DNA of 64,000 bases, taken from positions 25,482,001 to 25,546,000 of the forward strand of contig OX597818.1 in the NCBI GenBank assembly GCA_951406725.2, in the 5' to 3' direction. The stretch is from Octopus vulgaris (lineage: Eukaryota). Made by a program: the position numbers and the translations under genes. The notes beneath the pieces were generated by a model. It ran no database searches. It had not been told where the DNA came from and was given only the letters and a program-made list of their open reading frames with translations. Below, piece by piece: positions 7,045 through 52,829 of this stretch (its first letter is position 1; each line of letters starts with the position of its first letter).

Positions 7045-7218
7045 AAGTGGCTTTGTGGTAAGTAGCTTGATTACCAACCACATGGTTCTGGGTTCATTCC
7101 CACTGCATGGCACCTTGGGTAAGTATCTTCTACTATAGACTCAGGCCAACCAAAGCCTTGTGAGTGGATTTGGTAGATGGAAACTGAAAGAGGCTCGCCA
7201 TATATATACATATATATG

Positions 7219-7472: not shown

Positions 7473-7477
7473 TAACG

Positions 7478-9890
7478 ATCAACTATCGATATGATATTCT
7501 CCATACGCCAACTTCAGGAGAAGTCCAGAGAGCAGAGAATGCCATTATATATGGCCTTCATTGATCTAACAAAGGCCTTTGACTCGGTAAGCAGAACAGG
7601 CCTCTTCACCCTGCTCCAAAAAATCGGATGTCCACCAAAGCTGCTGAGGATCATCAAGTCTTTCCATGATGACATGCAAGGCACCATACAGCACAACGGT
7701 TCAACATCAGCCGCCTTCCAAATAAAAAACGGGGTAAAGCAAGGTTGTGTCCTCGCTCCTACATTGTTTGGCATCTTCTCGCTCTTACTCTCACATGCCT
7801 TTCAGACATCAGATGATGGAGTGTTTCTGCACAGTAGAAGTGATGGGAAACTGTTCAATCTCTCGCGTCTGCATGCCAAGACCAAAATCAGAAACATCCT
7901 GATCAAGGAGATGCTATTTGCTGATGATGCCGCTCTGGTATCACACACAGAAGAAGCCCTCCAAAGGCTCATTAACTGTTTTGAGCAAGCATGTAACGAC
8001 TTTGGCTTAGCTATCAGCCTTAAGAAGACCAACATCATGGGTCAGGCTACATCGGACATCCCAAACATACATATTGGAGACCACAGATTACAAGAGGTGG
8101 AGAAGTTTACCTATCTGGGCTCTACCGTCACCTACAATCTATCCCTCGACGCTGAGCTCAATATACGCATTGGCAAGGCAGCTGCTGCAATGGCCCAACT
8201 CTCCAAACGGGCTTGGGACAACAATAAGCTGACCAAGACCACGAAAATGAAGATCTGACCAGGCATGTGTACTTAGCACTCTACTATATGGAAGTGAGAC
8301 TTGGACGCTATACACACGCCAAGAGCGTCGCCTAAACATCTTTCACCTGCACTGCCTCCGGAAAATTCTCCGCATCAAATGGCAGAACCATATCCCCAAC
8401 AAAGATGTCCTCAGGCAAGCAGGAATACCAAGCATGTTTGCACTCCTCACACAAAGACGTATGAGATGGCTTGGGCATGTTAGCCGTATGAAAGATGGCA
8501 GAATCCCCAAGGACATACTCTACGGAGAGCTTGCTAGGGGTACTAGGTCTGTAGGTAGATCGCTCTTACGTTACAAGGATGTTTGCAAAAGGGACATGAA
8601 GGCCTGCAACATCAATATTAGCGGTTGGGAGGCAGTTGCCGGCAACCGTGGAGACTGGCGACGTACCGTAAGAGAGGGAATACAAAGGAGTGACAGAGAG
8701 AGAGAGGAGAAATGGAAAGACAAGAAAAGACATCAACAAGAAACTATGGCATTAGTTAGTTAGTTAGTTAGTTAATTTGGCTCAAAAGCAAATAGCAAGG
8801 CCATGTAGGGGGACATGGAGTTAAGTACAGGGTGGTGTTCATGTAAAGAGTTCAGGCCACTTGAGGTCAAGGGAGGCTTTGAACAAAGCGGTCGTCGGCA
8901 TCTTCACCATCTCGTCTGGCAGCTTGTTCCACGGATCCGCAACCCGGACGGAGAAAGCTCCTCTCCTTCGATTGAGATGAAATCGTCGCAGGTAGAGCTT
9001 TTCGGAATGACTCCGCAGCCGACGCTCTGGAGCAGGAGTGAAGAACAGCTCTTTCGAGAGGTTACACTTTCCGCTTATGATGTTGTGGGCAAGAATGAGA
9101 TCACCACGGCGGCGGCGTTTTTCAAGAGAATAAAGGTCAAGCGTCCTCAGCCTTTCTTCGTAGGACAAATTTTTGAGACCATGAACCATGCGGGTAGCCA
9201 GCTTCTGGACTCTTTCGAGATGCTGTATGTCTTTGAGGAGATAAGGAGAAGAGGCTTGAATCCCATACTCCAATATGGGTCTCACCAGCGTGACATAGAG
9301 TGGTAGGAATATGGCTGCTGTGAGCATTCCGAATGACCGTCGAATCAAGAACAGAATTCCGCGTGCATTGTTGGCAGCATGGACGCACTGGGCCGAAGGC
9401 GAAAAGGAGGAATCCACCAAGATACCTAGGTCCTTTTCCTGATCGGTCCTCTCCAGCAGCAGACGACCCGGCTCGAAATCAAGTTGAGTTGCAGGAGTAG
9501 AGCCGACAGGCAGATGACAGCACTTTGACACGTTCAGACACAGGTCCCAATTGTTAGACCACTTCCAAATTTGGTGGAGGCATCAACGAAGATCCTCTAT
9601 ATTACCGCGAGGAGCAACCAGTTTGATATCGTCGGCAAATAGAAGGGTGTGTTGCGTGAGGTCGTCGGGCAAGTCATTTATGAAGACTAAGAACAACAAG
9701 GGCCCAAGCACTGAACCTTGAGGCACGCCAGGAACAGTCTTTGCTACATTTGCGGTACCTGCCAGAGGGAGTGTTTGTCCAGGATTGGACTACACAGCAG
9801 GAAATGTATCAGGACATGAAATGTAAAAGCCGGACTAGACTACTTTATGCGCAACTCCATTGTCTCCTGAGACAAAAAGGTTGCCAACAA
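7478..9890 (+). mobile_element. RTE/BovB-like LINE, 5'-truncated, split by a CR1 insertion (7478-8751 and 9730-9890)
   Basis: ORF 7491-8258: FIDLTKAFD, GVKQGCVLAP, LFADD, FTYLGS; then LYGSETW and RWLGHVSRM..RIPKDILYGEL. The C-terminal finger [19 protein letters not shown] resumes at ~9742. Confidence 0.85.
8752..9729 (-). mobile_element. CR1-type LINE, 5'-truncated, with (CTAA)n tail
   Basis: Minus strand [72 protein letters not shown]; tail reads (TTAG)n on + at 8752-8773. Confidence 0.88.
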
Positions 9891-16052: not shown

Positions 16053-19000
16053 ATCATCATCATCATCATCGTTTAAAGTCCGCTTTCCATGCTGGCATGG
16101 GTTTGATGATTTTGACTGAGGGCTGGCAAACCAGATGGCTGCACCAGGTTCCAATCTTGATCTGGCAGAGTTTCTACAGCTGGATGCCCTTCCTAACGCC
16201 AACCACTCCAAGAGTGTAGTGGGTGCTTTTTACGTGCCACCGGCATGGGGGCCAGTCAGGCAGCACTGGCAATGACTTCGCTCGAATCTTTTTACACGTG
16301 CCAGTGAAGCGATGTTGATAACGATCACGCTCGGCCCTTTTACGTGCCACGGGTATGAAAGCCAGTTGGCTGCTCTTGGCACCCTACTAGCACAGGCATA
16401 AGTGCCAGTAAGGCGACACTGGTAGTGATCATACTTGAATAGCCGCTCTGTCACCGATCCCACTCGCATGGTGCTCTTTGCACCCCGCTAGCATGGATGC
16501 CAGTCATCGAATTGATTTTGATTTTACTTGCCTCAACAGGTCTTCGCAAGCAGAGTTTAGTGACCAAAGAAGGAAAAGGTATGCATAAGCGGGTTGGTTA
16601 TGCTCCTGGCATAGGCCACGGGTTATGGTCTCATTTGGCTTGCCTGGTCTTCTCGAGCACAGCATATTTCCAAAAGTCTCGATTGCTAGTCGTCATTTCC
16701 TTGGTGAAGCCTAATGTTCTAAGGTTGTGCTTCACCACTTCATCCCAGGTCTTCCTGAGTCTGCCTCTTCCATGGTTTCCCTCAACCGCTAGGGTGAGGC
16801 ACTTTTTCACACAGCTATCCTCATCCATTCTCACCACATCTAATGCTTCTTGGGTCCATCTTTTCTCCCAAGGTACTTAAACTCTGTTGAGTATGTACAC
16901 TGACATTACACATCCATCGGATCATACTGGCTTCATTCCGTGCGAGCTTATGCATGTCCACAGCCCATGTTTCACTGCCATGTAGCATGGCTGTTCGTAC
17001 ACATGCATCATACAGTCTATCTTTTACTCTGAGTGAGAGGCCCTTTGTCACCAGCAGAGTTAAGAGCTCTCTGAACTTTGCCCAAGCTATTCTTAATCTA
17101 GCAGCTACACTTTCTGCACACCCGCCCCCGCTACTGACTTGGTCACCTAGGTAACGGAAGCTATCAAATATTTCTAGTTCTTCTCCCTGAAATGTGGCGG
17201 AAGTTGGTCTCTGTGCATTTTCAGTGTTTATCGCTCCCGAGCATCTGCCACATGCAAAATCTATCTTCCCAGTTAGCCTTCCTTTGATATTACTGCACCT
17301 CTTATGTGTTCATAGCTTACACTGGGTGCATCTTATAGAGTTTCTACCTACGCCTCTCCTACAGATCGAGCAGGGCCATCTACCTGAAGGGATTTGTGGT
17401 TTGCCTGCCTTCCTACTTATTAGGACTTTGGTTTTAGCTAGGTTGACTCTAAGGCCCCTCGATTCTAAACCCTCCTTCCACACCTGGAACTTCTCCTCCA
17501 GTTCTGATAGTGACTCAGCAATTAGAGCAAGGTCATCAGCATAGAGGAGCTCCCAGGGGCATCCTGTCTTGAATTCCTCCGTTATTGCCTGGAGGACTAT
17601 GATAAATAGGAGGAGGTTGAGGACTGAACCTTGGTGGACCCCTACCTCTACCCGGAATTCTTCACTGTACTCGTTGCCAACCCTCACCTTACTAGCAGCG
17701 TCCCTGTACATGGCTCGCACTGCTCTCACTAATCATTCATCTATCCCTAGTTTCCTCATTGACCACCAGATAAGGGATCGGGGGACCCTCTCAAAGGCTT
17801 TCTCCATGTCAACGAAAGCCAGGTGCAGGGGCTTATCGTTTGCTAGGTATTTCTCCTGCAGCTCTCTTACCAGAAATATGGCATCAGTGGTGCTTTTCCC
17901 TGGCACAAACCCAAACTGCATCTCATCTAAACTAACTCTCTCTCTAATTAGTTGGGCTATGACCCTCTCCGTAACCTTCATTACCTGATCTAACAGCTTG
18001 ATACCCCTGTAATTATTTGTATCTAGGGCGTCATCTTTATCTTTGTAGCAGTTGACTATTATGCTGCTACACCAGTCATTGGGAATGACTCCTTCGTGTA
18101 TCACCTGGTTAACTATACGGGTGACTAGGCTATAGCCGACACTACCAGATATTTTAAGCATCTCTGCAGTAATTCCTGATGGGCCTAGGGCTTTCCCTGT
18201 CTTCATGCTTCTAATTGCCTTAACTACCAAGGAACTGTCAACTTGGATAGCTGGTCCCTCTGTTGGGTCGACATTTAGCAGACTCTCTTTATCCCATTCA
18301 TTTTCTTTATTGAGCAACCTTTCATAGTGGCGTCTCCAAACCTCTCTCTTTGCATCCTCATTTAGTGCAGGTGAACCATCATCCATGCGAACACATTTCT
18401 CTCCTACCACATCACGATTCTCTCTCACACACTGTCTTGCAACACGAAATACCTCAAGTCTTTCATCATCACGGTGCAGAACATTGGCAAATTTTTTCTT
18501 ATCTGCTTCCCCTCTGGCTAAATACACCTGCATCCTAGCTTCCCTTCTGGCAGTCTGATACACTTCCCTGCTACCACTGTTCTTTCAGTCCTTCCAAGCC
18601 TGTTTCTTTTGTCTAATAGCCCTGTCAACAATATTGTTCCTCCACCACGTTATTTTGGGTCTTGAGGGGACTTTGCACCAACCACAGATCTGGTCACTGG
18701 CTCTCAGCAGGTTCTCCCTTTGAAACCTCCAGTTGTCTTCTACCCCAGGTGAAGCTATATCCCCTTCTATTACATCAAAGGCTTCAAGTAATATGTCTCT
18801 AAATCTCTGTCCATTTGCAGGATCTTTAAGCTTCCAGACCCTTCTTCTCCATGTTGGTCGTCTTCTGGTCGTCCTCTTAGTCCTGATCCTAAAGTCACTA
18901 ACTACCAGTCTATGTTGTGGGGTACATTCTTCACCTAGGAAGGTTTTGGCATTTATAAGCAGCCATCTTTCCCTTTTTCTGGCAAGGGTGTAGTCAATTT

Positions 19001-19319
19001 GGCTAGTATGTCGGCCCGATCAGTAAGTGAATAGGTGACTGGTAGGTTTCATGAAGTTAGTATTGCAAACCATAAGATCATTCGCATCGCAGAACTTCAG
19101 CAGCCTGGTTCCCTCCTCATTGCGGGAACCATAACCGTAGCCTCCATGTATGCCATGGAAGCCCCCTGCATGTTGTCCAACATGCCCATTGAAGTCACCA
19201 GCCACAAAGAGAGGGTCCCTGTCGTTCGTCGATGAGGTAGTCTGCAGTAGGGTGTCATAGAATCGGTCTTTCTGTCCATCAGGTAGCCCTAGCTGAGGGG
19301 CATAGGCTGATATAATGGT
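16053..19319 (-). mobile_element. RTE-type LINE, long decayed copy (partial APE endonuclease, RT, PHD, 3' UTR, (GAT)n tail)
   Basis: Minus-strand ORFs 19020-19205 (AGDFNGHVG), 17733-18563 (NYRGIKLL, FVDMEKAF), 17310-17729 (QGSVL, YADD) and 16821-17051; tail reads CATCATCATC on + at 16053-16070. Confidence 0.93.
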
Positions 19320-19420
19320 GGTGTAAGACTTTTGAAGTGTACATGGGAGACAACCAGGGATGACAAAATTGGGACTTCCTGTAAAGGTGGAGGGGGTGGG
19401 AGGGCGAGTGCACCATGAAA

Positions 19421-19967
19421 ACTAGCAGCCATGAGGGGGCGCCTCTCATTTTTTGGAGAAGGAATACTTCATTGTAGGTATTAAGAGACATAATTGAGAG
19501 AGAGATATGTTGCAGATTTAGGGGAGATGCGTGAGCTAAATTTATCTTAGACATCGATAAGTAAGGGGAACTATAGAATGATATATATTTAACACGAGAT
19601 GTGAGGCTGAAATAGACAGAGTAAAACAGAATAGAGATAGACTAAAAAGGTAAATCAATTGCGCAGAAATAATACTAGGTAGTTAACGGGTTGAATTTAA
19701 AGGAATGCTTATCTGTGATTCATCTCTTCTGTTCGTAGTTTACAGCAAATTTTTTGAATCGAAAATGGGGGAGCTATAATGCGTGTGTTAGTTTATATAG
19801 CATGGTGATGGAAGGGGAGTAGGAAGTCCTGTCGAGTGGTAATCGAAAGAGATAGGGAGACAGACCGTGTGAAGAGATAGAGAAAAACATAGTGAGACAG
19901 AGAGGGGGGATCGCGACCCACGTAAACTAGCAGCCATGAAGGGGCGCGTCTCATCTCGTGGAGAAGG
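19421..19967 (-). mobile_element. Two tandem Helitron-like 3' termini (hairpin + CTAG|T) ~505 bp apart
   Basis: On +: A|CTAGCAGCC-ATGAGGGGGCGCCTCTCAT at 19421-19449 and A|CTAGCAGCC-ATGAAGGGGCGCGTCTCAT at 19926-19954. On the minus strand each is a GC-rich near-palindrome 5 nt before CTAG followed by T. Confidence 0.55.
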
Positions 19968-20964: not shown

Positions 20965-21835
20965 CTAGCTTAAGGTGACCCGCTCTACGCATGGGTAAGG
21001 GTGTGGTTGTTACTTTCTGTTGCTTCCTTTCTGTTTTTTTATCACTACATTCTCCCTCTTTGTTTCTCTTTCATTTTCCCACTCTCTTACTATCTATCTT
21101 TCTCTATCTATCTCTCTCCCATTTATAAACAATAAAAGAACTTGAGTATGTTAAGAAAGAAAATATGTTGAAAGATCAATCATAAATATCAGGCAGTGAC
21201 AACGGAAAGGTCTGCTTCAAGGCATACAACAAAACACTAACTTTTAAAAAGGACAAACAAACTTGCGAGCTGAATAAAAATAATAAAATATTGTAAACCA
21301 AAGTTTGAAGGGATAGAATCTGAGGATAGTAGAGTCATCATGGCTGGCATTTCTTAACAGCAGACAGCAACATAGTGGCAGTTTAACGGCTGGCATAAAA
21401 TTTTGAATTTGATGTAAAAGAAAATTCCTAAACACCAAGTTTTGAAGTGATTCTTTCTCACGACAGTAGACTCACCATGGCAAGCATTCAAAACTTCTTC
21501 ATCGTGAACGGCAACACATTGAAGATTTAAAGGCTGGCGCAAATTTTTTAGCTTGATGTAACAGAGAATTCCTAAACACCCACTCCTGTAAATTTTAATC
21601 CCCCTCCAGCCCCATTTAGAACTCTTTTCACATTTTGGTTAATATAACCCGATTTCATTTGGGTCTACTCGGGCCACATTTTACAAGATGAGGAATTTTG
21701 TCCTAGAGGTCACTCCTTTCATTTGAGGAAAAAAAATAGTTGCCATACAAACTTGCCAGCACTTTTAACATAGGTGTGCATATTTTCAGCTCAACCGACC
21801 ACATAATGCACACATTATTTATATATATATATAGA
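20965..21835 (-). mobile_element. Non-autonomous Helitron-like element
   Basis: Minus strand starts TCTATATATATAT.. (~21835) and ends ACCCATGCGTAGAGCGGGT hairpin..CTAG|T (20965). Confidence 0.6.
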
Positions 21836-24800
21836 GTTGGCACATTGAAAGGTAGGTCTGGAGAGATTGTAGAGCTGCTTGAACGGAGACGTGTGGATGT
21901 ATGTTGTATCCAGGAAGTAAGGTGGAGAGGAGGTTCCGCTAGGCTCCTCACAGGCAAGGAACACAGGTATAAGATTTTCTGGGCAGGGAACACTGACGGG
22001 GTCGGGGGCGTGGGTATACTTCTTGCAGAGAAATGGGTAGGTAAGGTAATTGAGGTAGTCAGAGTAAGTGACAGAGTAATTAAAATTAGATTAGTTCTTC
22101 ACCACAGGACAGTTACCATCATCTCGGCATATGCCCCTCAGCCAGGGCTACCGGAAGGACAAAAAGACCAATTCTATGACACCCTATTGCGAACTACCTC
22201 GTTGACAAATGACAGTGACCTTCTCTTCGTGGCAGGTGATTTCAATGGACATGTCGGACGGCATGTCGGGGGCTTCCATGGCGTCCATGGAGGCTATGGT
22301 TTCGGCTCTCGTAATAAGGAGGGAACCAGGCTGCTGGAGTTCTGCGATGCAAATGACCTTATGGTCTGCAATACCAACTTCAGGAAACTCTCCTCTCACC
22401 TAGTCACCTACCGTTCTGGCAGACACACCAGCCAGATTGACTACATCCTTGCCAGAAAAAGGGAAAGAGGGCTGATTATAAATGCCAAAAACTTTCCAGG
22501 CGAAGAATGCACTCCTCAACATAGATTAGTAGTTAGCGACTTTAGGATCAGAGCTAAATGGTTGCCCAGAAGAAGACCTGCTTGGAGGAGAAGGGTCTGG
22601 AAGCTTAAAGATCCTGCAAATGGACAGAGATTTAGAGACATACTACTCGAAGCCTTTGACGAAATAGAAGGGGATATAGCTTCACTTAATGTGGAAGACA
22701 ACTGGAGATTTCTACGGGACAATCTGCTGACAGTCACTGACCAGATCTGTGGATGGAGCAAAGTACCGTCTTAACCCAGAGTAACATGGTGGTGGAACAC
22801 TGTGGTTGACAGGGCTATTAGACAAAAGAGACAGGCTTGGAAGGACTGGAAGAACGGTGGTAGCAGGGAATTGTATCAGACAGCCAGAAGGGAAGCTAGG
22901 AGACAGGTTTATTTAGCCAGAGGGGAAGCGGATAAGAAAAAATTTGCCAATGTTCTGCGCCGTGAGGATGAAAGACTTGAGGTATTTCGTGTTGCAAGAC
23001 AGTGTGTGAGAGAGAATCGTGATGTGGTAGGAGAGAAGTGTGTTCGCATGGATGATGGTTCATTTGCGCTAAATGAGGAAGCAAAGAGAGAGGTTTGGAG
23101 ATGCCACTATGAAAGGTTGCTGAATAAAGAAAATGAATGGGATAAAGAAAGTCTGCCGAATATTGACCCAACAGAGGGACCAGCTATACGAGTTGATAGT
23201 TCCGTGGTAGCTAAGGCAATTAGAAGCATGAAGACAGGGAAAGCCCCAGGCCCATCAGGAATTACTGCAGAGATGCTCAAAATATCTGGCAGTGTCGGCT
23301 ATAGCCTAGTCACCCGTATAGTTAATCAGGTGATACACGAAGGAGTCATACCCAATGACTGGTGTAGCAGCGTACTAGTCAACTGCTACAAAGGTAAAGG
23401 TGATGCCCTAGATACAAATAATTACAGAGGTATCAAGCTGTTGGATCAGGTAATGAAGGTTACGGAGAGGGTCATAGCCCAACAAATTAGAGAGAGAGTT
23501 AGTTTAGATGAGATGCAGTTTGGGTTTGTGCCAGGGAAAAGCACCACTGATGCTATATTCCTGGTAAGGCAGCTGCAGGAGAAATACCTAGCCAAAGATA
23601 GGCCCCTGTACCTGGCTTTCGTTGACATGGAGAAAGCCTTTGATAGGGTCCCCTGATCCCTCATCTGGTGGTCAATGAGGAAACTAGGGATAGATGAATG
23701 GCTGGTGAGGGCTGTGCAAGCCATGTACAGAGATGCCGTAAGCAAGGTTAGGGTTGGCAACATGTACACAGAAGAATTCAAAGTAGAGGTTGGGGTCCAC
23801 CAGGGTTCAGTACTCAGCCCCCTCCTATTTATCATAGTCCTCCAGGCAATAACAGTGGAATTCAAGACAGGTTGCCCCTGGGAGCTCCTCTATGCTGACG
23901 ACCTCGCTCTAATTGCTGAGTCACTATCAAAACTGGAGGAGAAGTTCCAGGTGTGGAAGGAGGGTTTAGAATCGAGGGGCCTTAGAGTCAACCTAGCTAA
24001 AACCAAAGTACTAATAAGTAGAAAGGTAGGCAATCCACAAATGTCCTCAGGAAGATGGCCCTGCTCGATCTGTAGAAAAGGTGTAGGTAGAAACTCTATA
24101 AGATGTACCCAGTGTAAGCTATGGACACATAAGAGGTGCAGCAATGTCAAAGGTAGGCTAACTCGGGAGCATTGACCTCCGAAAATCTGCAGAAAACAAC
24201 TTCCGTCACTTTCCAGGGGGAAAAATTAGAAGTAGTTGATAGTTTCCGTTATCTAGGTGACCAAGTCAGTAGTGGGGGTGGGTGCGCCAAGAGTGTAACT
24301 GCTAGAATAAGAATAGCCTGGGCAAAGTTTAGGGAGCTCTTACCTCTGCTGGTGACTAAAGGCCTCTCGCTCAGAGTGAAGGGCAGACTGTATGATGCAT
24401 GTGTTCGAACTGCCATGCTACATGGCAGTGAAACATGGGCCGTGACTGCTGAGGACATGCGTAAGCTCATGAGGAATGAAGCCAGTATGCTCCGATGGAT
24501 GTGTAATGTCAGTGTACTTACTCGACAGAGTGTTAGTTCCCTAAGAGAAATGTTGTACCTAAGAAGCATCAGTTGTTGCGTGCAAGAGAGACGATTGCGA
24601 TGGTATGGTCATGTGGCGAGAATGGATGAAGATAGGAGTGTGAGAAAGTGCCAATCCCTAGCAGTTGAGGGAACCCGTGGAAGAGGTAGACCCAGGAAAA
24701 CCTGGGACGAGGTGGTGAAGCACGACCTTCGAACATTAGGTCTCACCATGGAAATGACCAGAGACCGAGACCTATGGAAGTATGCTGTGCGTGAGAAGAC

Positions 24801-25385
24801 CCGGCAAGACTAGTGAAGCCATAACCCGTGGCCCCTACCTGGGGCGTAGTCAGTCCGCCTGTGCATACCTTCCTGCTTGTGACACTTGTGAAGACCTGTT
24901 GAGGCAAGTCAAATCGAATCAAGTCAAACCAAATCAAAATAGATGAACATCAATGGAATTTGTATCCTTGTGGTACCAGTGCTGGTGGCACATAAGAAAA
25001 CCATCCGAACGGGACCGTAGCCAGTACCGCATCGACTGGCCTCCGTGCTGTGGGCACGTAACAAACACCGTCCGAGCGTGGCCGTCTGCCAGCCTCGTCT
25101 GGCACCTGTGTCGGTGGCACATAAAAACACCATCCGAGCGTGGCCGTCTGCCAGCCTCGTCTGGCACCTGTGTCGGTGGCACATAAAAACACCATCCGAG
25201 CGTGGCCGTCTGCTAGCCTCGTCTGGCACCTGTGTCGGTGGCACATAAAAACACCATCCGAGCGTGGCCGTTCGCCAGCCTCGTCTGGCACCTGTGTCGG
25301 TGGCACATAAAATCACCCACTACACTCTCGGAGTGGTTGGCGTTAGGAAGGGCATCCAGCTGTAGAAACACTGCCAGATCTGACT
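21836..25385 (+). mobile_element. RTE-type LINE, near full-length ORF (APE endonuclease + RT + PHD), inactivated; 3' tail missing
   Basis: VGTL..DVCCIQEVRW, AYAPQ, AGDFNGHVG, QIDYIL, QHRLV (APE), then FVDMEKAFD, QGSVLSP, YADD, FRYLG. Stops at 22772 and 23654 and a 31-bp frameshifting deletion at 24163/24164; the ORF ends at TAG 24813. Confidence 0.95.
25005..25312 (+). repeat. 62-bp tandem repeat array in the RTE 3' UTR
   Basis: CCGAGCGTGG recurs at 25072, 25134, 25196 and 25258 (period 62), with a diverged unit upstream. Confidence 0.92.
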
Positions 25386-26670: not shown

Positions 26671-28225
26671 GTAGTAAACACTTTCTTCCTTCATTTTGTA
26701 TTTTCCTTTGCATTTTTTGATCATGTGAAAATGTCAGTGCTTTATTTTTTTCATTCATACTGTTATTGAAAAATAGAGTAGCAAGAGTTAAATTACACAG
26801 TGAACATGAGCTTACTCTACCATGCTTATTAAGGATGAGCCTAAGCTATGACGTTCTGTTTCTCTTTCCTATTCTTGGGGAAATAAATGTAACATAGAAA
26901 TGTTAAAACAATGAAGGCAGCTCCTAGATGTACAATTCTTCTATCAATAATTTCTACAATAAAGACATCTCACTTGTTTCATTTTGTTTGTAAAAGTTAA
27001 GCTAGTGTAACCAAAGTTAGACTGAATGAAGAATTTCTTATACTGCTATCTGAAATATATATCTGATTGTTTGTGTTTATTTCATGGGCTTGGAAGCTTT
27101 ATATTATTGATGCTACTATTCATAATAAAAGCAATTCTTTCATAGAGAAGTCTAATAAAAAAAACTTTAGCAATGATGTGTGGTTGTATTAAATGCGGTT
27201 TAAAGTATGTTAAGATCTAAATTGGGGAAAATTGTCCCTTAAATAGCTGAAAAGGGGCGCTTGGCTAGTCTATCACATAAGGGACAGACAGTCCACGTAA
27301 AGCTAAATAGACTTGACTGTCATGTGATGAACCAAAAATAGGCAGCTAAAAGTAAAATGCCACTACGTGGGTAACTAAAGGTCAAGAGTTATCATGTTTC
27401 TGCTACAGAACTTCCATGGTATAAGTGCCTCATAAAACTCTGTTGACTCAATTGTTGATAGGATGAGAATCCAGTTAATCAAAACCATGTACTTGGAAAC
27501 ATACTAGATGTGTCAAGATTCAGGGAAGAATCCAAGACATATGGAGGGATGCTCTACTGCAAATCCCTCCAACATTTGCCTACATGGAAAAACATATGTA
27601 CAATGAATTCTGACAGTAGGTTGTAAAATTATGCTTAAAACTCAAATTTATAATTTATTCTTTACTCGTTAAATCACTAGTGCTTCATGCACAGTATTTT
27701 CAGTCTACCTTAGAAATATCACCAAAATGCTATAATTATAAAACATATGATATAAATTCAATGTTGATATGTTAAGTTGCTTGTGAGATTTATAGAGGAA
27801 ATGGGGAGGTTGTAAAATTGTTTTCTCACTGATGTTCATAGCACAAATGACGTATATGTCTCTAACTTGGAACCAAAACTAGGTTGTTATGAGCTTATTT
27901 ACCTCTTAGACTTATAGATTCAATATTGTAATATTTGTAAACAATGACAGAGATGCTAGACTGAAATCAAGTTGAACTGGAGTGTTTCATCTCTCAAAAG
28001 GCAGTTAGTGGCAATAATATACCAGCATCAATTATATTGATGATATTGCAACTTTACAAAACATATCCTTCTCTTGAGCTTTAAAATTTATTCTTTTAAT
28101 AACTTCAGTCAATGAACTACAGCTATATGGAAGGCTTAGTTGATGTATCAATGCCAGTACTTATTTTCAAGCCTGGTACTTGTTTTATTAATGTCTACTT
28201 GACAAACCACATTACAGGACATAAG

Positions 28226-28969
28226 CAAACATGGACACTACAGTTCTATATTTAAGAGATGAGGAATTGTGTACTTTATTTACATTTGACGGATATTTGT
28301 CCTCATCTTGTTTGTTGTTAACACAACATTTTGGCAGATATACCCTCCAGCCTTTATTAGGCGTCTTGGGGAAATTTGGAACCTGGATTCTCATTCCTAA
28401 GGTATTTTTTAATGTTGTCGTTATTCAGGTCACTGCCTGGAATCAAACTCGGAATCTTGGGATTAGTAGCCCATGCTCTTAACCACTATGCTATATGCCC
28501 GTGGACAATTCTGGAGTGAATTTTAGGGCTTATAAATCTAATATTTTTCTATCCTTCCTTAATACCGGTTCCCATATGCTACTCATATCTGCACTCGGTC
28601 TGCTTAGGAGGTTGTTGTGTCCTAGCATACGTGTTGCTTCTTTTAGTTTTCATATTTTCCAGTGGTGTTCTCTGTCTATTATTTTAACTTCATCCCACGG
28701 GGGGCGGTCTCCATTTTTCCATACATGATCAGCTATACCCGATTTATCAATATCTCCTCGTGTCACAGCTTTGTGATGTTTGTCGACGAAAGCCCTAAAA
28801 TTAACTCCATAATTGCCCGTGGGCATATAGCGTAGTGGTTATGAGTACAGGCTACTAATCCCAAGATTCCAAGTTTGATTCCAGGCAGTGACCTGAATAA
28901 CAACAACATTGAAAAATACCATAGGTAAATAACAAATGTAAATAATGTAAATAACAAACATGGATACTA
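28226..28969 (-). mobile_element. 5'-truncated Penelope-like element with inverted pseudo-LTRs (tRNA-like cassette + decayed hammerhead) and a ~15-bp TSD
   Basis: Minus strand 28779-28531 encodes a GIY-YIG C-terminus (HHKAVTRGDIDKSGIADHVWKNGD..WDEVKIIDREHHWKI*KLKEA). Inverted arms at 28401-28531 and 28790-28920; flanking CAAACATGGA(C/T)ACTA at 28226-28240 and 28955-28969. Confidence 0.8.
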
Positions 28970-29157
28970 ACACATATATACAAACATATACACACACTTA
29001 CAATGAGCTTCCATACAGGTTTCACCTTCCAAATTGTAATCTCAAAACATTAACTAGGGTAGCGTGCCAGTATAACTCCAGTCTATTGGTTGGTACCAGC
29101 AAAATAATTAGGCATCAGTTTAAATTTACTGATCTGACTTTATGTTTAGTAAACTGC

Positions 29158-29463
29158 ATCATCATCATCATTTAACATTTGATTGAAAACTGGTAAGCCA
29201 GGGCGCTGCACTAGGTTCCAATCTGATTTGGCATGGTTTCTATGGCTGGATGCCCTTCCTAATGCCAACCACTCCAAGTGTGTAGTGGTACTTTTTACGT
29301 GCCACTGGCATGGGTGCCATTGATGTGACATTAGCATCAGCCATGGCTACAGTCTTGCTTGGCTTGACAGGTCTTCACACACATAGTATATCACCAAAGG
29401 TCTCAGTCACCTGTCACTATCTTCATGTGGCCCATTGCTTAAATGGTGCTTTTTATGTGCCAC
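29158..29463 (-). mobile_element. Old RTE 3' UTR fragment
   Basis: CATCATCATC tail on +, then GGATGCCCTTCCTAATGCCAACCACTCC and TTTTTACGTGCCAC units. Confidence 0.7.
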
Positions 29464-30550
29464 AAAATGTGTATTTGAATAAAAGCTCAAGGGCATTTTA
29501 CTGTTTGAAACTATACTGATTTAGAATAAAAGAATATAGACAGTACACGCTTCAATTTTTTAGTTTTAACTCATTAATGAATACAGCATTTTAGTGAGTG
29601 TAGAGCCTCTCTTTTCATAATAATGACATTTTGTTTTCTTCCTGAAACCCTATTATGGAAGTAGTATGTTTGCTTATATTATAAACCAATTTGTGAAACC
29701 TCCTAATACATATACTGAAACTTGATACCACAGTGTAAAATATGTCTTGTTCTTGCAGTATTTCATTCATAAAACCCATATATTCTAAGGTTGTCTGTGT
29801 CATCTATTTAACTTAATTTTATCTTGTCTTTTTGGCTATCATTGAAATACTTTTGCACTCACTCATCAAGCATCTTTTTATTTCACTATACTTTCACACT
29901 AATGTAGTCTTCCCTCATCAACCCAATGGTGTTTATCTAAGCATTTCTTAACTTGCATGCATTCAATAAAATTGTCAAGTTTGATGCAGTGCATTTAACA
30001 AATCATCTTTAATTCATCCTTCTCTAATTGTTGTAAGTTTACTATGTAGTTTCTATATGGGATGCACTATGCCTTGAGAAATATATTCAACTAATTTATT
30101 TCTTTTATGAAAACAGAATTTGTATACTGCTAGCAGTATACAAAAAGTTTTCCATCCACTTTACATTCTAGAGATTTTGCTAGCACTTATTCCATTTACT
30201 GTACCAATTGTCTCCTAAATTATTTATCATAAAGTTTAACTCTAGCTAGTTTTCTTGAGAAGGCCTACATTATTTGAGTGCTTATTCTATCTTAAGTTGC
30301 TGTTTATTTTGTATCTGTAATTGAGATTTTTTTTTATCAAATGCTATTGAATTTGGCAGCTTCTAGTTTGTCATAGACATTTTTATTCAAATCTTTTTAT
30401 TCTAGCCTGTTCTGTCAAATTTAAACTTTTTAACTGACTCTGCAACACTTGGATTGATTGCTTTTTTTTCTGTTAACTATAATGACTATTCCCTTTGCTG
30501 GATTGGGGTTTTACACTATTTTTATCACTTTTAAAAATTTTCTTTGGTAG

Positions 30551-39320: not shown

Positions 39321-39543
39321 GTAAGTTAAGGAAAGGTTTTTATTTTTTACTTTTTTTATTTATTTGTTTTGTGTCTGTGATGCCAAATCCTCTTGATTAC
39401 TCATATGATTTAGTCTCATGTACATTTTTTTCTACTGTTTTGAAAATTAAAGATTAAAAGTGGATGAAAGTGTCATTTTATTCATTTTACCTTAGCCTTT
39501 TTAATATCAACCTACCTGAAACCATCTGGTTCAAAAATGCAAA

Positions 39544-42500
39544 ATACAAATAACTACAGGGGTATCAAGCTGCTGGATCAGGTAATGAAGGTTACGGAGA
39601 GGGTTATAGCCCAATTAATTAGAGAGAGAGTTAGCTTAGATGATATGCAGTTTGGGTTCGTGCCAGGCAAAAGTACTACTGATGCTATATTCCTGGTAAG
39701 ACAGCTGCAGGAGAAATACCTAGCCAAAGATAAGCCCTTGTACCTGGCTTTTGTTGACTTGGAGAAAGCCTTTGACAGGGTCCCCCGATCCCTTATCTGG
39801 TGGTCAATGAGGAAACTAGGGATAGATGAATGGTTAGTGAGAGCTGTGCGAGCCATGTACAGAGACGCTGCTAGTAAGGTGAGGGTTGGCAACGAGTACA
39901 GTGAAGAATTCCGGGTAGAGGTTGGGGTCCACCAAGGTTCAGTCCTCTGTCCCCTCCTATTTATCATAGTCTTCCAGGCAATAACGGAGGAATTCAAGAC
40001 AGGATGCCCCTGGGAGCTCCTCTATGCTGATGACCTTGCTCTAATTGCTGAGTCACTATCAGAACTGGAGGAGAAGTTTCAGGTGTGGAAACAAGGATTA
40101 GAATCGAAGGGCCTTAGAATCAACCTAGCCAAAACCAAAGTCCTAATAAGTAGGAAGGTGGACCAATCACAAACGACTTCAGGTAGATGGCCCTGCTCGA
40201 TCTGTAAAAAAGGTGTAGGTAGAAACTCTATAAGGTGCACCAAGTGTAAGCTATGAACACATAAGAGGTGCAGCAATGTCCAAGGAAGGCTAACTAGGAA
40301 AATAGTTTTTGTCTGTGGCAGATGCTCAGGAGCAATAAACACTGGAAATGTGCAGAGACCAACTTCTACCACGTTCCAGGGAGACAAACTAGAAGTAGTT
40401 GATAGCTTCCGCTACCTAGGAGACCAAGTCAGTAGCGGGGGTGGGTGTGCTGAAAGTGTAACTGCTAGAGTAAGAATAGCCTGGGCAAAGTTTAGAGAGC
40501 TCTTACCCCTGCTGGTGACAAAAGGCCTCTCGCTCAGAGTAAAAGGCAGACTGTATGATGCATGTGTACGTACAGCCATGCTACATGGTAGTGAAACATG
40601 GGCCGTGACTGCTGAGGATATGCGTAAGCTCGCAAGAAATGAAGCCAGTATGCTCCGATGGATGTGTAATGTCAGTGTTCATAATCGTCAGAGTGTAAGT
40701 ACCTTGAGAGAAAAGTTGAACCTAAGAAGCGTCAGTTGTGGTGTGCAAGAGAGACGGCTGCGCTGGTATGGTCATGTGACGAGAATGGCTGAAGATAGTT
40801 GTTTGCAAAAGTGCTACACCCTAGCAGTTGAGGGAACCTGTAGAAGAGGTAGACCCAGGAAAACCTGGGACGAGGTGGTGAAGCACGACCTTCGAACTTT
40901 AGGTATCACCAAGGAAATGACTAGAGACCGAGACCTATGGAAGTATGCTGTACGTGAGAAGACCCGGCAAGACTAGTCAGGCCATAACCCGTGGCCCCTA
41001 CCTGGGACGTAGTCAGTCCACCTGTGCATACCTTCCTTCTTGTGACACTTGTGAAGACCTGCTGAGGCAAGTGAAAATCAAATCAAAATAGATGAACATC
41101 AATGGAATTTGTATCCTTGTGGTACCAGTGCTGGTGGCACACAAGAAAACCATCCGAACGTGGCCGTAGCCAGTACCGCATCGACTGGCCTCCATGCTGT
41201 GGGCACATAACAAACACCATCCAATCGTGGCCGTTTGCCAGCCTCATCTGGCACCTGTGTCGGTGGCACATAAAAACACCATCCGAAGACCCGGCAAGAC
41301 TAGTCAGGCCATAACCCGTGGCCCCTACTGGGACATAGTCAGTCCACCTGTGCATACCTTCCTTCTTGAGACACTTGTGAAGACCTGTTGAGGCAAGTGA
41401 AAATCAAAAATCAAAATCAAAATCAAAACAAATCAGAATAGATGAACATCAATGGAATTTGTATCTTTGTGGCACACAAGAAAACCATCCGAACGTGGCC
41501 ATAGCCAGTACCGCATCGACTGTCCTCCGTGCTGTGGGCACGTAACAAACACCATCCAATCGTGGCCATTTGCCAGCCTCATCTGGCACCTGTGTCGGTG
41601 GCACATAAAAACACCATCCGAAGACCCGGCAAGACTAGTCAGGCCATAACCCGTGGCCCCTACCTGGGACGTAGTCAGTCCACCTGTGCATACCTTCCTT
41701 CTTGTGACACTTGTGAAGACCTGTTGAGGCAAGTGAAAATCAAAACAAATCAAAATAGATGAACATCAATGGAATTTGTATCTTTGTGGTACCAGTGCTG
41801 GTGGCACACAAGAAAACCATCCGAACGTGGCCGTAGCCAGTACCGCATTGACTGGCCTCCGTGCCGTGGGCACGTAACAAACACCATCCAATCGTGGCCG
41901 TTCGCCAGCCTCATCTGGCACCTGTGTTGGTGGCACATAAAAACACCATCCGAAGACCCGGCAAGACTAGGCACCTGTGTCGGTGGCACATAAAAACACC
42001 ATCCGAAGACCTGGCAAGACTAGTCAGGCCATAACCCGTGGCCCCTACCTAGGACGTAGTCAGTCCACCTGTGCATACCTTCCTTCTTGTGACACTTGTG
42101 AAGACCTGTTGAGGCAAGTGAAAATCAAAACAAATCAAAATAGATGAACATCAATGGAATTTGTATCTTTGTGGTACCAGTGCTGGTCACACACAAGAAA
42201 ACCATCCGAACGTGGCCGTAGCCAGTACCGCATCGACTGGCCTCCGTGCCGTGGGCACGTAACAAACACCATCCGATCGTGGCCGTTCGCCAGCCTCATC
42301 TGGCACCTGTGTCGGTGGCACATAAAAACACCATCCGAGCGTGGCCGTCTGCCAGCCTCGTCTGGCACCTGTGTCGGTGGCACATAAAAAACACCATCCG
42401 AGCGTGGCCGTTCGCCAGCCTCGTCTGGCACCTGTGTCGGTGGCACATAAAATCACCCACTACACTCTCGGAGTGGTTGGCGTTAGGAAGGGCATCCAGC

Positions 42501-42744: not shown

Positions 42745-43125
42745 GCCCAGGCATGGCTGTGTGGTAAGAAGCTTGCCTCCCAACCACATGATTCAAGGTT
42801 CAGTCCTACTGCATAACATCTTGGGCAAGTGTACTATAGCCTCAGGCCAACGAAAGCCTCATTAGTGGATTTAGTTGATGGAAACAGAAGAAAGCCTGTC
42901 ATGTGTGTGTGTGTGTGTGTGTGCTTTTTTCTGTTTGTCCTGTACCACTGCTTGGCCATTGGTGCTAGTGTGTTTACGTCCTTATAACTTAGTGGTTCAC
43001 CAAAGAGACCAATAAGTACCAGGCTTTAAAAAAATAAATAACGAGGTTATTTCATTTGACTAAGAAATTCTCTAAGTCAGTGCCCCTGCATGGCTGCTGT
43101 CTAATGACTGAAACAAGTAAATAAA
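42745..43125 (+). mobile_element. tRNA-derived SINE (family A)
   Basis: GGCATGGCTGTGTGGTAAG head, GGTTCAGTCC, TTGGGCAAGT, (TG)n, tail GACTGAAACAAGTAAA. Confidence 0.8.
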
Positions 43126-43254: not shown

Positions 43255-43621
43255 ATTTTAGTTTGGTGGTTTGCAACCAAAATGTCCAGTTCTCACAGTG
43301 GTAACAGTAACCATGTGAATCGCTGCAACAGCAACAGTAGTGCAAATGCTTCCCAACATGCAGCAGCCAGTTTCTGTGATGAAATTGTCACACTATGGCG
43401 ACTGGCTGCTCTAAACCCAAAACTGTCACCTATCCAACGAGACGATCTATGCACTAAATTCCGAGATTGGCATATATCCACAATTGACAAAGTCAAAAAA
43501 ATTCGTGGTTCAAGCTTTGGCATACCAGTTAGCCTGAAGAAGACTGATATTGAAAATTTCTGTGGGTTTAAACCAGCAGTTGAGGCTTGTTCATTGGACT
43601 GGGAAGAATACAATATTCCTG
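43255..43621 (+). CDS. ZSWIM8: ZSWIM8 coding exon
   Basis: ctag|..|gtagg; ILVWWFATKM..HAAASFCDEIVTLWRLAALNPKLSP..FCGFKPAVEACSLDWEEYNIPG. Confidence 0.96.
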
Positions 43622-43764
43622 GTAGGTTTTTTATAATAATTTCTTCCTTTAAAATTAATATATATGTTTAAAATTAATATATATGTTTAAAATTAATATA
43701 TATTATATTCCAGCAAATTAAAGTTGTTTCCCTGCTTGAATTTATTGTTATATGAATAAATTCG

Positions 43765-46729: not shown

Positions 46730-46868
46730 TAGAAATGGGTGATACTGTACACACAAAAATGTCACTAAAAATGTGTGTTTTGTTATTGTTTAGTTCAGTA
46801 GATAATGTGTTAATTATTGTAATGTGTAATGTTGATTGTTTAATGTTGCTGTTTTTGTCTTGTTACAG

Positions 46869-47599
46869 GTATAACATACTCAGAGGGTCTTGGCACTCAG
46901 TATCACATTAGTCGCATCCAAGAAACAGAGACTAAAAAATTATCTCGAGTACAGACTGTTGCAGTTTGTTCACAAGATCTCATCAGTTCAGATTCTTCAA
47001 CACGCTGCACCCATCCAGCAATGAATTTTGACCCAACAACTGGCACAGACCTCAGGGAACCTCATTACTTTTTCAAAAGCATTCCAGGCCCTGGTTTGAT
47101 GTCTTTTGATGTTGGCAACATGGATTCTGTTCTGAGTTCTGGTTCTGAGGGATTTTGTGAACCAGATAAATCAGACACTGAAACAACTAGGAACTCGAGT
47201 AGCAGCAATGGAAAGAACAAAGTCACACACCAAGAGAGTATCGATAACTCTGAGTATAGGGGTAACTGTCAAAACTATAAAGACAAGAACTTAGTTGACT
47301 CTGTAAAATTTTCTGTGGTTGTGTCAGATACAAATGGTGACTCAGATGCCTCACTTCCAGGGACATCTGGCTGCCAAAATGGAGCTAAGACTTCTGCACA
47401 TTCTGAGCAAGGAGGAGAATCACCGCGCTTAGAGCCCAGTCTGTCTGCAGAGTCCCAGCCATCAAGTGATGAATACCAGTTGTATTTTTATGATACTAAA
47501 GTGTTGGTTAAATCATCAGAGTCTGAGAAAAAGAAAAAAGACAAAACTGAGGAACCAAATTACTTCTTTGGTCTGAAGACTAGCTACAGCAAACAAGAT
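46869..47599 (+). CDS. ZSWIM8: ZSWIM8 coding exon (731 bp, largely low-complexity/disordered)
   Basis: tacag|..|gtaagt; begins GITYSEG (continuing ..IPG), open throughout, contains SSGSEGFCE and SSDEYQLYFY; phases 1/0 fit. Confidence 0.9.
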
Positions 47600-47736
47600 G
47601 TAAGTATCATTCAGTTAAAAAATTAATTTTTCGTATAACTTCATTCTAAAATTAGTTAATATTTTTAAATGAGCTTGAACTCCTATCTTTATTTTTTGTA
47701 TATAAAAATAAATTTTAGTTTGTAACTTTTTATTGG

Positions 47737-50144
47737 TTGCCAATGTCCAGCAACGTGAGGACCAAAGAACTGAGATATTTCGGATTGCTAGACAGTGTGT
47801 GAGAGAAAATTGTGATGTCACAGGAGAGAAATGCATCTACATGGATGATGGTGCACTTGCTTTTAATGTTTCTGAAAAGAAAGAGGCTTGGAGAAGCCAT
47901 TATGAGAGACTGCTGAATGTGGAGAATGAATGGAAGGAGGAGAGCCTGCCAAATGTTGACCCAGTAGAGGGACCAGCTATCCCAATAGACAACTCCCTAG
48001 TAGATAAAGCAATTAAGAGTATGAAGCCAGGAAAAGCCCCCGGCCCATCCAGAATTACTGCTGAGTTGCTTAAAGCATCTGGTGGTGTGGGCTATGGCCT
48101 AGTCACCTATTGTAAACCAGGTAGTTCATAATGGAGTCATACGCAATGATTGGTGTAGCAGTACCATAGTTAACTGCTACAAGGGTAAAAGTGATGCTCT
48201 AGATAGAAATAACTACAGGGGTATTAAACTGCTGGATCAGGTGATGAAGGTCACAGAGAGGGTCATAGTCCATCTCATTAGGGAGAGAGTCTGCTTAGAT
48301 GAGATGCAGTTCGGTTTTGTTCCGGGTAGAAGCACTACTGATGCCATATTCCTGGTTCAACAACTGCAGGAGAAATACCTAGCTAAAGATAAACCTCTCT
48401 ACTTAGCTTTTGTGGACTTGGAGAAAGCTTTTGACAGGGTCCCCCAATCCCTTATCTGGTGGGCAATGCAGAAACTGGAGATAGATGAATGGCTAATAAG
48501 GGGTGTACAGGCCCTATACAGAGAGGCCGTTAGTAAGGTTAGGATTAGCAACAAGTATAGTGAAGAATTCTGGGTAGAAGTAGGGGTCCACCAAGGTTCA
48601 GCCCACAGTCCCCTTTTATTCATCATAGTCCTCCAGACAATAACTGGAGAATTCAAGACGGGTTGCCCCTGGGAGCTCCTCTATGCTGGTGACCTGGCTC
48701 TCATAGCAGAATCGCCACTAGAACTAGAAAAGAAATTTCAGGTGTGGAAGCTAGGTTTAGAATCAAAAGGCCTTAGAGTAAATGTAGCAAAGACCAAAGT
48801 TATAGTAAGTTGGAAGGCGAACTCATCACACACCCCCTTAGGTAGGTGGCACTGCTTGATCTGTAGAAAAAGTGTAGATAGAAACTCCATAAGATGTACC
48901 CAGTGTAAGCTATGGACGCATAAGAGGTACAGCAACATCAAAGGAAAATTAATTGAGAAGATAGCTTTCGTGTGTGGCAGATGCACAGGGGCAATAGACA
49001 CCATTGATACTCAGAAAACAGATTCCATTACACTCCAAGGGGAGAAACTAGAAATAGTTGATAGTTTCCGCTACCTAGGTGACCAAGTTAGTAATGGAGG
49101 TGCATGGTCAAAGAGTGTCACCACTAGAATACGAATAGCCTGGGCAAAGTTTAGAAAACTTCTACCCCTACCGGTGATAAAGGGTCTCTCGCTCAGAGCG
49201 AAAGGTAGAATGTACGACGCATGTGTGCGAACTGGCATGCTTCACAGTAGTGAAACATGGACTATGACTGCAAAGGACATGCATAGGCTTGAAAGAAATG
49301 AAGCTAGCATGATCCGTTGGATGTGTAATGTCAGTGTGCACACATGACATAGTGTAAGTGCCCTGAGAGAAATGCTGGACATAAGAAGCATCAGATGTGG
49401 AGTGCAAGAGGGACGTTTGCGCTGGTATTGTTATGTACTACATATGGATGAGGAGAGATGTGTGAAGAAGTGCCACTCCTAAACTGTTGAAGGAATCCGG
49501 GGTAGAGGTAGACCCAGGAAGACATGGGATGAGGTGGTCAAGCATGACCTTTGGACGTTGCGCCTCACAGAGGCAATGACAAAAGACCGAGATCTCTGGA
49601 GATATACTGTGACTGCAAAGACCTGACGAATAATGTGAGTTCATGGCTGTTTCCTGCACCAGTTTCACATAGCAGCCCCAGTCCATCCAAAGTACCTTGG
49701 ATCACAGAACGGCCTGCTGTGCTTACCTTTGATCATAGGGTGACCTGCTGTGCTTGAAGAGACCTATTGAGTCAAGTACATCAACATGAAAATAAAAAAT
49801 CAAATGGAAATTGTAGTTGTGATACCTGTGCCGGTGGTACGTAAAAAACATCATCCGAACGTGGCCGATGCCAGCGCCACCTTGACTGGCTTCCATGCCG
49901 GTGGCATGTAAAAAGCACCAACCGATCGTGGCTACTACCAGCCTCCCCTGGCACCTGTGCCAGTGGCACGTAAAAAGCACCCACTACACTCACGGAGTGG
50001 TTGGTGTTAGGAAGGGCATCCAGCTGTAGAAATACTGCCAGATCAGACTGGTGCCTGGTACAGCCTCCTGGTTTCCCAGACCCTGGTCGAACTGTCCAAC
50101 CCATTCTAGCATGGAAAACGGACGTTACATGATGATGATGATGA
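47737..50144 (+). mobile_element. RTE-type LINE, 5'-truncated, more diverged subfamily
   Basis: ORFs 47733-48131 and 48241-49347 (FVDLEKAFD, YAGD, PHD-like finger, FRYLG); 3' UTR repeats; (GAT)n tail at ~50130-50144. Confidence 0.93.
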
Positions 50145-52090: not shown

Positions 52091-52829
52091 AACAATAAAA
52101 TACAAGATTATTTTCAATCTGGCCTTCCATATACTTTCAACGCCCTTCTGTGTCTCTGGTCTCATAAAATTTAGGGAATCTTCCATTAGATAATCCTCAC
52201 AATTAAATCTCTGGAACTATTAGAGAATTCAAACTAAGCATTAACAGGCTTAATCCCACAGTTTTTTTTTTTAATTCACCATTAAAGAAAAGTGTGCAGA
52301 AGTAATCTTTCAACAATTTGTTGAAAGGAGTAGGTGGAATATCTCTTGTACATATAGTTATTGAACTATATCCATTTTATTCTTATAACATAATTTTTAA
52401 AAAACAAATTTTAAACATGATGCAAAAAGAACTGCAATCATTCTTTTCTCTGCATGCATTTTTAACAAAACTGTATTTATCTCAAATCACTTACAAAAAT
52501 GATTTATATTCAATCAAATCAACAAGGGAATTTGTAATGGGTCACTCAGTCTACCAGAAATGATACTCAAATCTTCCTCAGACCACAGCCTATTATCTTC
52601 TAAAAGAACAAATCAAATAATGTTGTCTGGAATACACTATTCCTGAAAATAAATTATCTTCTTTCAAAACGATTGCTAACAAAATAAACACTTAGTATTC
52701 CTTACAAATAGCCATTAATCTAAGATTTGCTATGAGAACACAGTGCATATTGAAGTAAGGTAGTGAAAATAATATGATCACTATAGAAAACAGCAACAAT
52801 AATGAAAATGAGATATTTATGTATTTCAG

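Follow-up and report, generated by a model that had tools for sequence, protein, structure and literature searches.

In Octopus vulgaris, a family of coding Penelope-like elements (PLEs) carries a unit derived from tRNA-Arg(ACG), with A and B boxes, in its pseudo-long terminal repeat (pLTR), where it precedes a hammerhead ribozyme motif. This tRNA-derived unit is a real, family-wide feature and apparently the new part of the finding, while inverted pLTRs, tails and minimal hammerheads are already known from PLEs. Most sampled copies with a whole tRNA unit have their 5' end close to its first base, and we lean, on slightly better than even chances, towards the reading that the long element RNA starts from a Pol III promoter and that the short copies arise by internal initiation of reverse transcription.

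The insertion in the window

The window is a stretch of 64,000 nucleotides from contig OX597818.1, to which all positions refer. It holds an insert of 744 bp including target-site duplications (TSDs), which is a dead, 5'-truncated PLE copy that bears an inverted arm and is flanked by a TSD of 15 bp: positions 28241-28954 lie between 15-nt direct repeats at 28226-28240 and 28955-28969, which are identical at 14 of 15 positions with one mismatch. The earlier note had described a TSD of about 15 bp together with an endonuclease (EN) end, a tRNA-like unit, a hammerhead-like motif and an inverted arm, and each of these parts was found where it had been placed. Read on the minus strand, the copy opens with the C-terminal part of the PLE EN (28530-28779), which is 5'-truncated at 28779, carries an internal stop at 28650 and ends with the stop codon at 28530-28532, so that the copy retains the last 250 nt of the PLE open reading frame (ORF). 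The EN C-terminus (28533-28779) holds only the portion past the GIY-YIG-like motif and a Pfam search of the fragment gave no match; its identity, proposed earlier as a GIY-YIG C-terminus and upheld here, therefore rests on longer copies and relatives.

Downstream on the same strand lies the tRNA-Arg(ACG)-derived unit (28428-28500, with +1 at 28500), including an A box at 28493-28483 and a B box at 28448-28440, the latter decayed at CpG in this copy. A 12-nt palindrome (28496-28507) spans the tRNA +1 and is the centre of many fold-back junctions elsewhere in the family. The unit is followed by an AAT/AAC microsatellite (28412-28425) whose length differs among copies, by the likely start codon of the ORF for reverse transcriptase (RT) and EN (28392-28394), assigned by an N-terminal match to the relative P0003, and by a minimal type I hammerhead (28320-28365) that is inactivated in the window copy. 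Its stem I is formed by 28365-28361 and 28324-28320, its core lies at 28360-28354, stem II covers 28352-28333, and the predicted cut lies after 28325. The direct arm closes with a PLE tail extension (28241-28275, minus strand), which represents the long 3' end as defined by 3'-end clusters of the family, with loose ends at 28239, 28272 and 28276. The second, inverted arm occupies 28790-28925 on the plus strand, starts 31 nt upstream of the tRNA +1 and contains its own tRNA unit at 28821-28893; over 136 nt the two arms (28396-28531 and 28790-28925) are 90% alike. Beyond it the pLTR tail survives, also inverted, as no more than 22 nt (28933-28954, plus strand), the end of which lies near the short 3' end of the family, and the hammerhead was thus deleted from this arm, as the earlier note had also read it. 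The window copy is dead at both RNAs, the tRNA unit and the hammerhead. Both arms extend upstream beyond the tRNA start, and therefore the window copy came from a longer read-through RNA.

Several other features surround the insert. A further interspersed repeat adjoins it at 29160-29460, fragments of LINE ORFs lie at 7476-8763, 8839-9582, 17310-19421, 21740-24813, 39468-40976 and 48103-49347, and tRNA-headed SINE-like repeats were observed at 3258-3310, 7048-7102, 42748-42803 and 55460-55514. Open frames that resemble exons of a host gene occur on the plus strand between 43255 and 55204 (43255-43671, 46844-47626, 52812-53219 and 54544-55077); the gene is possibly ZSWIM8-like.

The coding family and its terminal repeat

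The genome was searched with each of the three modules alone, whereby 40 candidates were scored and 30 fetched per search. First-look counts amounted to 2,782 for the EN end, 2,821 for the tRNA unit and 2,603 for the hammerhead with tail, and a query with the 5' end of the ORF gave 391; the loci studied are top-scoring matches out of about 2,600-2,800 candidates per module search and do not represent a random sample. The family qualifies as an EN+ PLE with a C-terminal EN, a type defined by a single ORF in which RT precedes a GIY-YIG-type endonuclease with Cys/His zinc ligands. One longer copy gave an RVT_1 match (E 1e-9) on its natural frame, and in locus L204 RT and EN share one frame of 569 aa. 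Relatives are 38-68% identical among the best 120 of 1,564 matches, and three with PF01541 are listed. In L204:1066-2775 the EN carries the motif VYSIPC..YKGET, in which Lys replaces the Ile of YIG; this variant is common to the relatives of 53-68% identity (P0001-P0006), and relatives of 38-45% identity keep YIGET. The placement within the PLE clades is provisional, being drawn from domain order and likeness to PAc only. The family is old: divergence from the column majority ranges from 4.6 to 8.4% in the 60 longest pieces, none of the fetched loci showed a complete, intact ORF, and family sequence is present under five organism labels.

The tRNA unit directly follows the EN end in 28 of 29 non-self loci found by the EN query, and a sense hammerhead lies downstream of the unit in 27 of 29 non-self loci found by the tRNA query. 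Moreover, L188 is a tandem with the order EN, tRNA unit, hammerhead, tail, ORF, EN, tRNA unit, hammerhead and tail. This linkage identifies the cassette as the pLTR of a coding PLE; the earlier note had asked whether all autonomous members carry the tRNA unit, and ORF-bearing copies have it in their pLTR. The repeat unit comprises 2.67 kb, with the order tRNA unit, AAT repeat, ATG, hammerhead, tail, RT/EN ORF and next tRNA unit; partial tandems forming the pLTR were found in L188 and L191, and 40/58 loci contain both orientations. In L100:1375-1454 and the sequence upstream of it, a tRNA unit is fused to a piece of the ORF 5' region, which represents an internally deleted tandem. A direct repeat of at least 10 nt flanks 29 of 33 two-armed insertions (1/33 in controls), and the TSDs of such insertions measure 10-24 nt. 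The alternative that an independent SINE with its own TSD had inserted into the window copy alone, which the earlier note had named as the case against itself, was rejected, since the unit belongs to the pLTR in 28/29 EN-found loci and the TSD encloses the whole insertion. Two 3' ends about 35 nt apart were observed (88 and 102 of 236 ends in the two clusters), consistent with the tail of 30-40 nt that characterizes PLEs. In L180 the frame that begins with the ATG corresponding to 28394 continues without a stop across hammerhead and tail, and its N-terminal portion is 47% identical over 74 aa to the N-terminus of P0003. An intron near the 5' end, as known in some PLEs, was not found; the unspliced frame matches P0003 through hammerhead and tail, and none of the 15 joints listed out of 84 read showed GT..AG. 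A 38-nt intron within the tail was therefore rejected as a candidate, given the missing GT..AG joint and the continuous frame relative to P0003.

A family profile of the tRNA unit, compared with 30 host tRNA genes, matched tRNA-Arg(TCG) best (E 5.7e-5), and after 8 of 41 matches to an Arg(ACG) pattern had been added, host tRNA-Arg(ACG) ranked first without gaps (E 6.4e-8), which substantiates the tRNA-like nature first suspected from the window. The unit of L038 is identical to the tRNA at 44 of 73 positions (~60%). With conventional tRNA position numbering and 28500 taken as +1, T8, G53-T54-T55-C56, A58 and C61 stand in tRNA register when the sequence is read directly. Of 90 copies, 66 have an intact A box, 44 an intact B box and 35 both, with variation mostly at CpG; the window copy kept the A box and lost the B-box C in both arms. 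Box positions decay by 5.8% compared with 5.0% for the rest, as is expected in dead copies and with no sign of selection. As read from the copies, acceptor and T stems no longer pair well, and the unit is therefore to be regarded as a promoter-like relic and not as a working tRNA. Standard tRNA and ribozyme finders overlook both RNAs in the window copy: ARAGORN called 0 tRNA genes in the window, and Rfam found neither tRNA nor hammerhead in 27600-29600. In 20 family loci, the best 150 of 209 Rfam matches likewise included neither of the two, and relaxed ARAGORN calls a tRNA in 28/90 copies. An abundant host SINE as source of the tRNA head was considered and no donor was found, as other tRNA-headed repeats in 1.06 Mb of DNA scored at most ~17 bits compared with 95-100 for the window arms. 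As a separate observation, 23 matches to the anticodon-arm pattern of tRNA-Arg(ACG) lie within 20 kb on one strand (G000:C2:211887730-211907120).

The hammerhead motif of the family majority has the sequence of an intact minimal type I hammerhead, as in PLEs. Over 135 copies the core letters are kept in 128 (C), 133 (T), 123 (G), 131 (A), 112 (T), 125 (G) and 131 (A) copies for CUGAUGA and in 87 (G), 133, 135 and 131 (A) copies for GAAA, the main losses being those at CpG sites; 57/135 copies have a whole core, and 5 have the core plus both stems. The earlier note had made its reading depend on a consensus with CUGAUGA and GAAA and had explained the window motif by four transitions and one stem II mismatch. 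The majority has this core, and the changes are exactly those at 28358, 28355, 28332, 28328 and 28336: at 28358, 28355, 28332 and 28336 the hammerhead letter prevails in reads and contigs of four other runs, and at the CpG site 28328 it is common in them. Position 28362 in stem I is a further site at which other copies carry the hammerhead letter. A natural intact copy is predicted to fold stems I and II, with a dimer at -34 kcal/mol. The predicted cleavage triplet of the family is GUU (28325 in the window), which is a weaker hammerhead triplet than GUC or GUA.

5' ends, T runs and the source of the element RNA

The 5' ends were analyzed in 65 tRNA-bearing arms from loci found by the tRNA or the hammerhead query, both of which are blind to upstream sequence; the tRNA query prefers complete units and cannot prefer stops just upstream. 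The starts pile up at the tRNA start: 46 of the 65 fall at -6 to +12, 0 at -30 to -7 and 6 inside the unit, and the remaining 13 continue into the ORF end, from -31 to beyond -300. The hammerhead-found set taken by itself gives 23/32 at -6 to +12, 0 at -30 to -7, 3 into the ORF end and 6 inside the unit. Such a pile-up is predicted by a Pol III start. Among 30 loci found by the ORF 5' end, three begin at the tRNA start (L162 at +1, L180 near +4 and L175 with a fold-back at +1) and 4 run into the preceding ORF end. ORF-less tRNA-headed copies represent the commonest form and bear the insertion marks of PLEs, including TSDs.

Pol III terminates at runs of at least four T (T4), and the sense strand of the family lacks such runs: by column majority no T4 occurs in 2,673 sense columns built from 410 pieces, the highest share at any site being 10%, and a second reference from 277 pieces again contains no T4 and 26 A4 runs in the ORF. 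The probability of this absence is 0.006 under base shuffling and 0.085 under a first-order Markov (dinucleotide) model. T4 is present in 8/9 LINE frames of the octopus genome and in the RT-EN region of 52 of 56 related PLE families, with a median of 4.2 per kb that lies above their own shuffles. These control families are from metagenomes, as two protein searches of the same genome returned top matches resembling the family itself. A pooled synonymous-codon shuffle contrasted 10 T4 runs with 42, with copies that are not independent of each other, and single frames reached P<0.05 in 1/25 cases. The T4 gap thus points, to a modest degree, in the direction that Pol III predicts. Four of the 56 families lack T4 over RT-EN and have no tRNA head, and another pressure against T runs may act on PLE RNAs. 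These are L287:3001-4653 (0 vs 7.4 expected), L253, which is the closest match, L255 and L263; three of the four have T4 in the ORF 5' part, the fourth, the 5'-truncated L253, has it in the 3' repeat region, and the three with the 3' region covered showed no tRNA cassette. Furthermore, A and B boxes at most 250 nt before a hammerhead-like motif occurred in 0/16 related families in which such a motif was found. One candidate, a tRNA-headed SINE-like unit at L324:2467-2539 next to a truncated PLE in a metagenome contig, was discarded as it lies in the flank, outside the pLTR.

RNA reads were taken from about 6% of three raw runs of one study under one species label, with ordinary paired cDNA, and were aligned to a tandem-junction copy. 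Depth is equal on both strands, 88-89% of reads continue into unrelated sequence, ORF depth lies about 100-fold under pLTR depth, and no pile-up of molecule starts or ends was seen in these reads. This pattern fits passenger transcription of dispersed old copies and is silent on Pol III.

We propose that the pLTR of an ancestral PLE would have acquired a relic of tRNA-Arg(ACG) followed by an AAT tail. Pol III would start a few bases before the tRNA +1 and, meeting no terminator, would read through the ORF and the next pLTR, and the PLE protein would initiate reverse transcription inside this RNA at one of its tails. Initiation at the first tail may yield short ORF-less copies that reach the 5' terminus of the RNA and in many cases turn back at the palindrome, and initiation at the second tail may yield long, usually truncated copies such as the window copy. 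The hammerhead would in this scheme be an ordinary PLE ribozyme overlapping the ORF start, with no sign that it defines the copied RNA. The fullest form of this proposal, which we hold tentatively and at somewhat less than even chances, is that of an autonomous retrotransposon whose 2.7-kb coding RNA is a Pol III transcript, which captured a tRNA-Arg gene as terminal-repeat promoter, whose ORF was purged of T-run terminators and is translated without a normal cap, and in which internal RT initiation generates thousands of SINE-like 5'-end copies. It is established that an uncapped Pol III RNA would need a way to be translated; the route is unexplained, and this counts against the reading of the Pol III transcript as an mRNA. 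In the available part of the source, the Penelope promoter is described as a LINE-like internal promoter, which likewise counts against Pol III (PMC2377424).

The translation problem would disappear if Pol III made only short SINE-like pLTR RNAs that the PLE enzyme copies in trans, with the coding RNA made as a capped Pol II transcript by read-through or from another promoter, a division of labor that we judge improbable. It would account for the prevalence of TSD-flanked ORF-less tRNA-headed copies and for the finding that EN lies directly upstream in sense in none of 29 hammerhead-found loci, and a precedent for Pol III and hammerhead in one unit is described for SINE-like elements of Schistosoma (PMC6765202). 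Against it, the cassette has no T4 terminator downstream, ORF-bearing copies also begin at +1, and no fixed diagnostic site parts 64 short-start from 93 ORF-linked arms, which differ by frequency shifts at positions 8, 11, 27, 28 and 64. Moreover, internal RT initiation yields short copies from a long RNA and needs no separate transcript (PMC11167929). An equally unlikely view makes the tRNA relic a passenger of the ancestral pLTR and attributes the 5' peak to snap-back at the palindrome, to RNase P-type cutting or to a Pol II internal promoter that starts there. The 12-nt palindrome is indeed centered at -1/-2 with many junctions on it, its structure may contribute to the peak, and fold-back is clear for 17 of the 46 starts; the boxes lack specific conservation, the T4 gap recurs in the 4/56 tRNA-less families, and PLE transcription is described as starting in the pLTR anyway (PMC8557442; PMC2377424). 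For the other 29/46 starts, however, fold-back is not clear, and in some cases the tRNA +1 is joined precisely to unrelated DNA. In four natural copies the hairpin has little stability (-5 to -7 kcal/mol as RNA and -1 to -4 as DNA), and no 5'-end pile-up accompanies the hammerhead fold, which is stronger (-13.6 kcal/mol). The broken acceptor and T stems argue against RNase P, and the majority boxes fit the Pol III consensus even though the unit is only ~60% identical to a tRNA.

The earlier note had envisaged a Pol III-driven, self-cleaving module, a SINE/retrozyme hybrid producing small or circular RNAs. Its Pol III part is in keeping with the 5' peak and the common ORF-less tRNA-headed copies, and its hybrid part is not: no ORF-less arrays, no pile-up at the cut site and no SINE subfamily were found in the loci studied, and a small-RNA module is also disfavored by the lack of a T-run terminator after the cassette and by the ORF, which reads through the hammerhead. 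In a retrozyme, Pol III RNAs of tandem pLTR monomers would self-cleave, circularize and be copied by the PLE RT, which we consider very unlikely here. The intact majority hammerhead with its many whole cores would allow for it, and animal retrozymes were proposed to be pLTR-derived (bioRxiv 10.64898/2026.07.22.740005). In 222 loci (a sample, 3-8 kb each), however, only 6 same-strand hammerhead pairs less than 900 nt apart and 0 ORF-less head-to-tail arrays occurred, the two-armed inversions of 40/58 loci taking their place; the 10-nt bin that contains the cut site holds 9/255 5' starts, similar to neighboring bins, and PAc insertion does not need the hammerhead (PMC11167929). A start of the long RNA at the tRNA unit by Pol III, with internal initiation on it, remains the reading we prefer.

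Relation to known elements and significance

The comparisons below refer to the available parts of each source. The family resembles Penelope/Poseidon-type EN+ PLEs such as PAc of Anolis in its ORF with RT and C-terminal GIY-YIG-type EN, its tandem pLTR and its inverted 5' arm; inverted pLTRs and tails are known in PLEs (PMC8557442; PMC11167929), and minimal hammerheads occur in their pLTRs (PMC4209133). For PAc, internal RT initiation in vitro, a hammerhead overlapping the ORF start and a tail signature with two ends, which is linked to internal RT initiation, are described (PMC11167929); the two-end signature also seen in the octopus family speaks for such initiation here, and the minimal type I hammerhead over the ORF start and the tail of 30-40 nt are shared with such elements (PMC11167929; PMC4209133). 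Unlike PAc-type PLEs, the octopus pLTR has at its head a unit with A and B boxes derived from tRNA-Arg, where copies start; no intron was found in the element, and its sense strand lacks T4. Sm-alpha and Sj-alpha of Schistosoma similarly combine a Pol III-type promoter and a subsequent hammerhead in one retro-mobile unit; these are ORF-less tandem repeats, whereas the octopus unit is the terminal repeat of a coding element and inserts as inverted pairs (PMC6765202). The TRIMp3 elements Helenus, Ajax and Cassandra carry a Pol III promoter derived from a small RNA inside the terminal repeat, for which insertion of a SINE into the repeat was proposed as origin and which is tRNA-derived in Helenus; they are non-autonomous LTR elements of 0.3-1.3 kb with PBS/PPT, 4-5 bp TSDs, no ORF and no PLE enzyme, unlike the coding PLE with TSDs of 10-24 nt described here (PMC10886601). 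Animal non-LTR retrozymes share the type I hammerhead and kinship to pLTRs, and differ in being ORF-less head-to-tail arrays from which circles arise; no such arrays were seen in the octopus loci sampled (PMC7761336; bioRxiv 10.64898/2026.07.22.740005). As in tRNA-derived SINEs (SINE2), there is a tRNA-derived head with A and B boxes; a separate non-autonomous family with its own short master was not found, and the head belongs to the coding element.

No coding PLE with a tRNA-derived pLTR was found in the full texts searched, including term look-ups in the available parts of PMC7761336, PMC13282606, PMC4758252, PMC8967140, PMC13343379, PMC6685494, PMC6740152, PMC2887409 and bioRxiv 10.64898/2026.07.22.740005; Repbase, Dfam, supplements and most subscription papers lie outside this scope, and an earlier annotation is possible. 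The term tRNA has 0 matches in the accessible text of PMC4209133, the terms tRNA, Pol III and promoter have no match in the main text, as available, of bioRxiv 10.64898/2026.07.22.740005, and the part of PMC13343379 at hand mentions neither tRNA nor Pol III.

The short copies that pile up at one 5' end represent a genomic read-out of internal initiation, which has so far been shown for one PLE in vitro. To our knowledge, Pol III promoters mark non-coding retroelements such as SINEs and TRIMp3, and for coding retrotransposons Pol II or host read-through is assumed. If the proposed reading is true, the RNA of this coding PLE, started at a tRNA cassette, would represent a natural mRNA made by Pol III, which would be unusual for a protein-coding retrotransposon. 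The family would then combine LINE and SINE within a single unit. This could plausibly be the ancestral state of SINEs that join a Pol III promoter and a hammerhead, such as those of schistosomes, and it would offer a direct path by which PLEs could give rise to SINEs with a tRNA head and a hammerhead.
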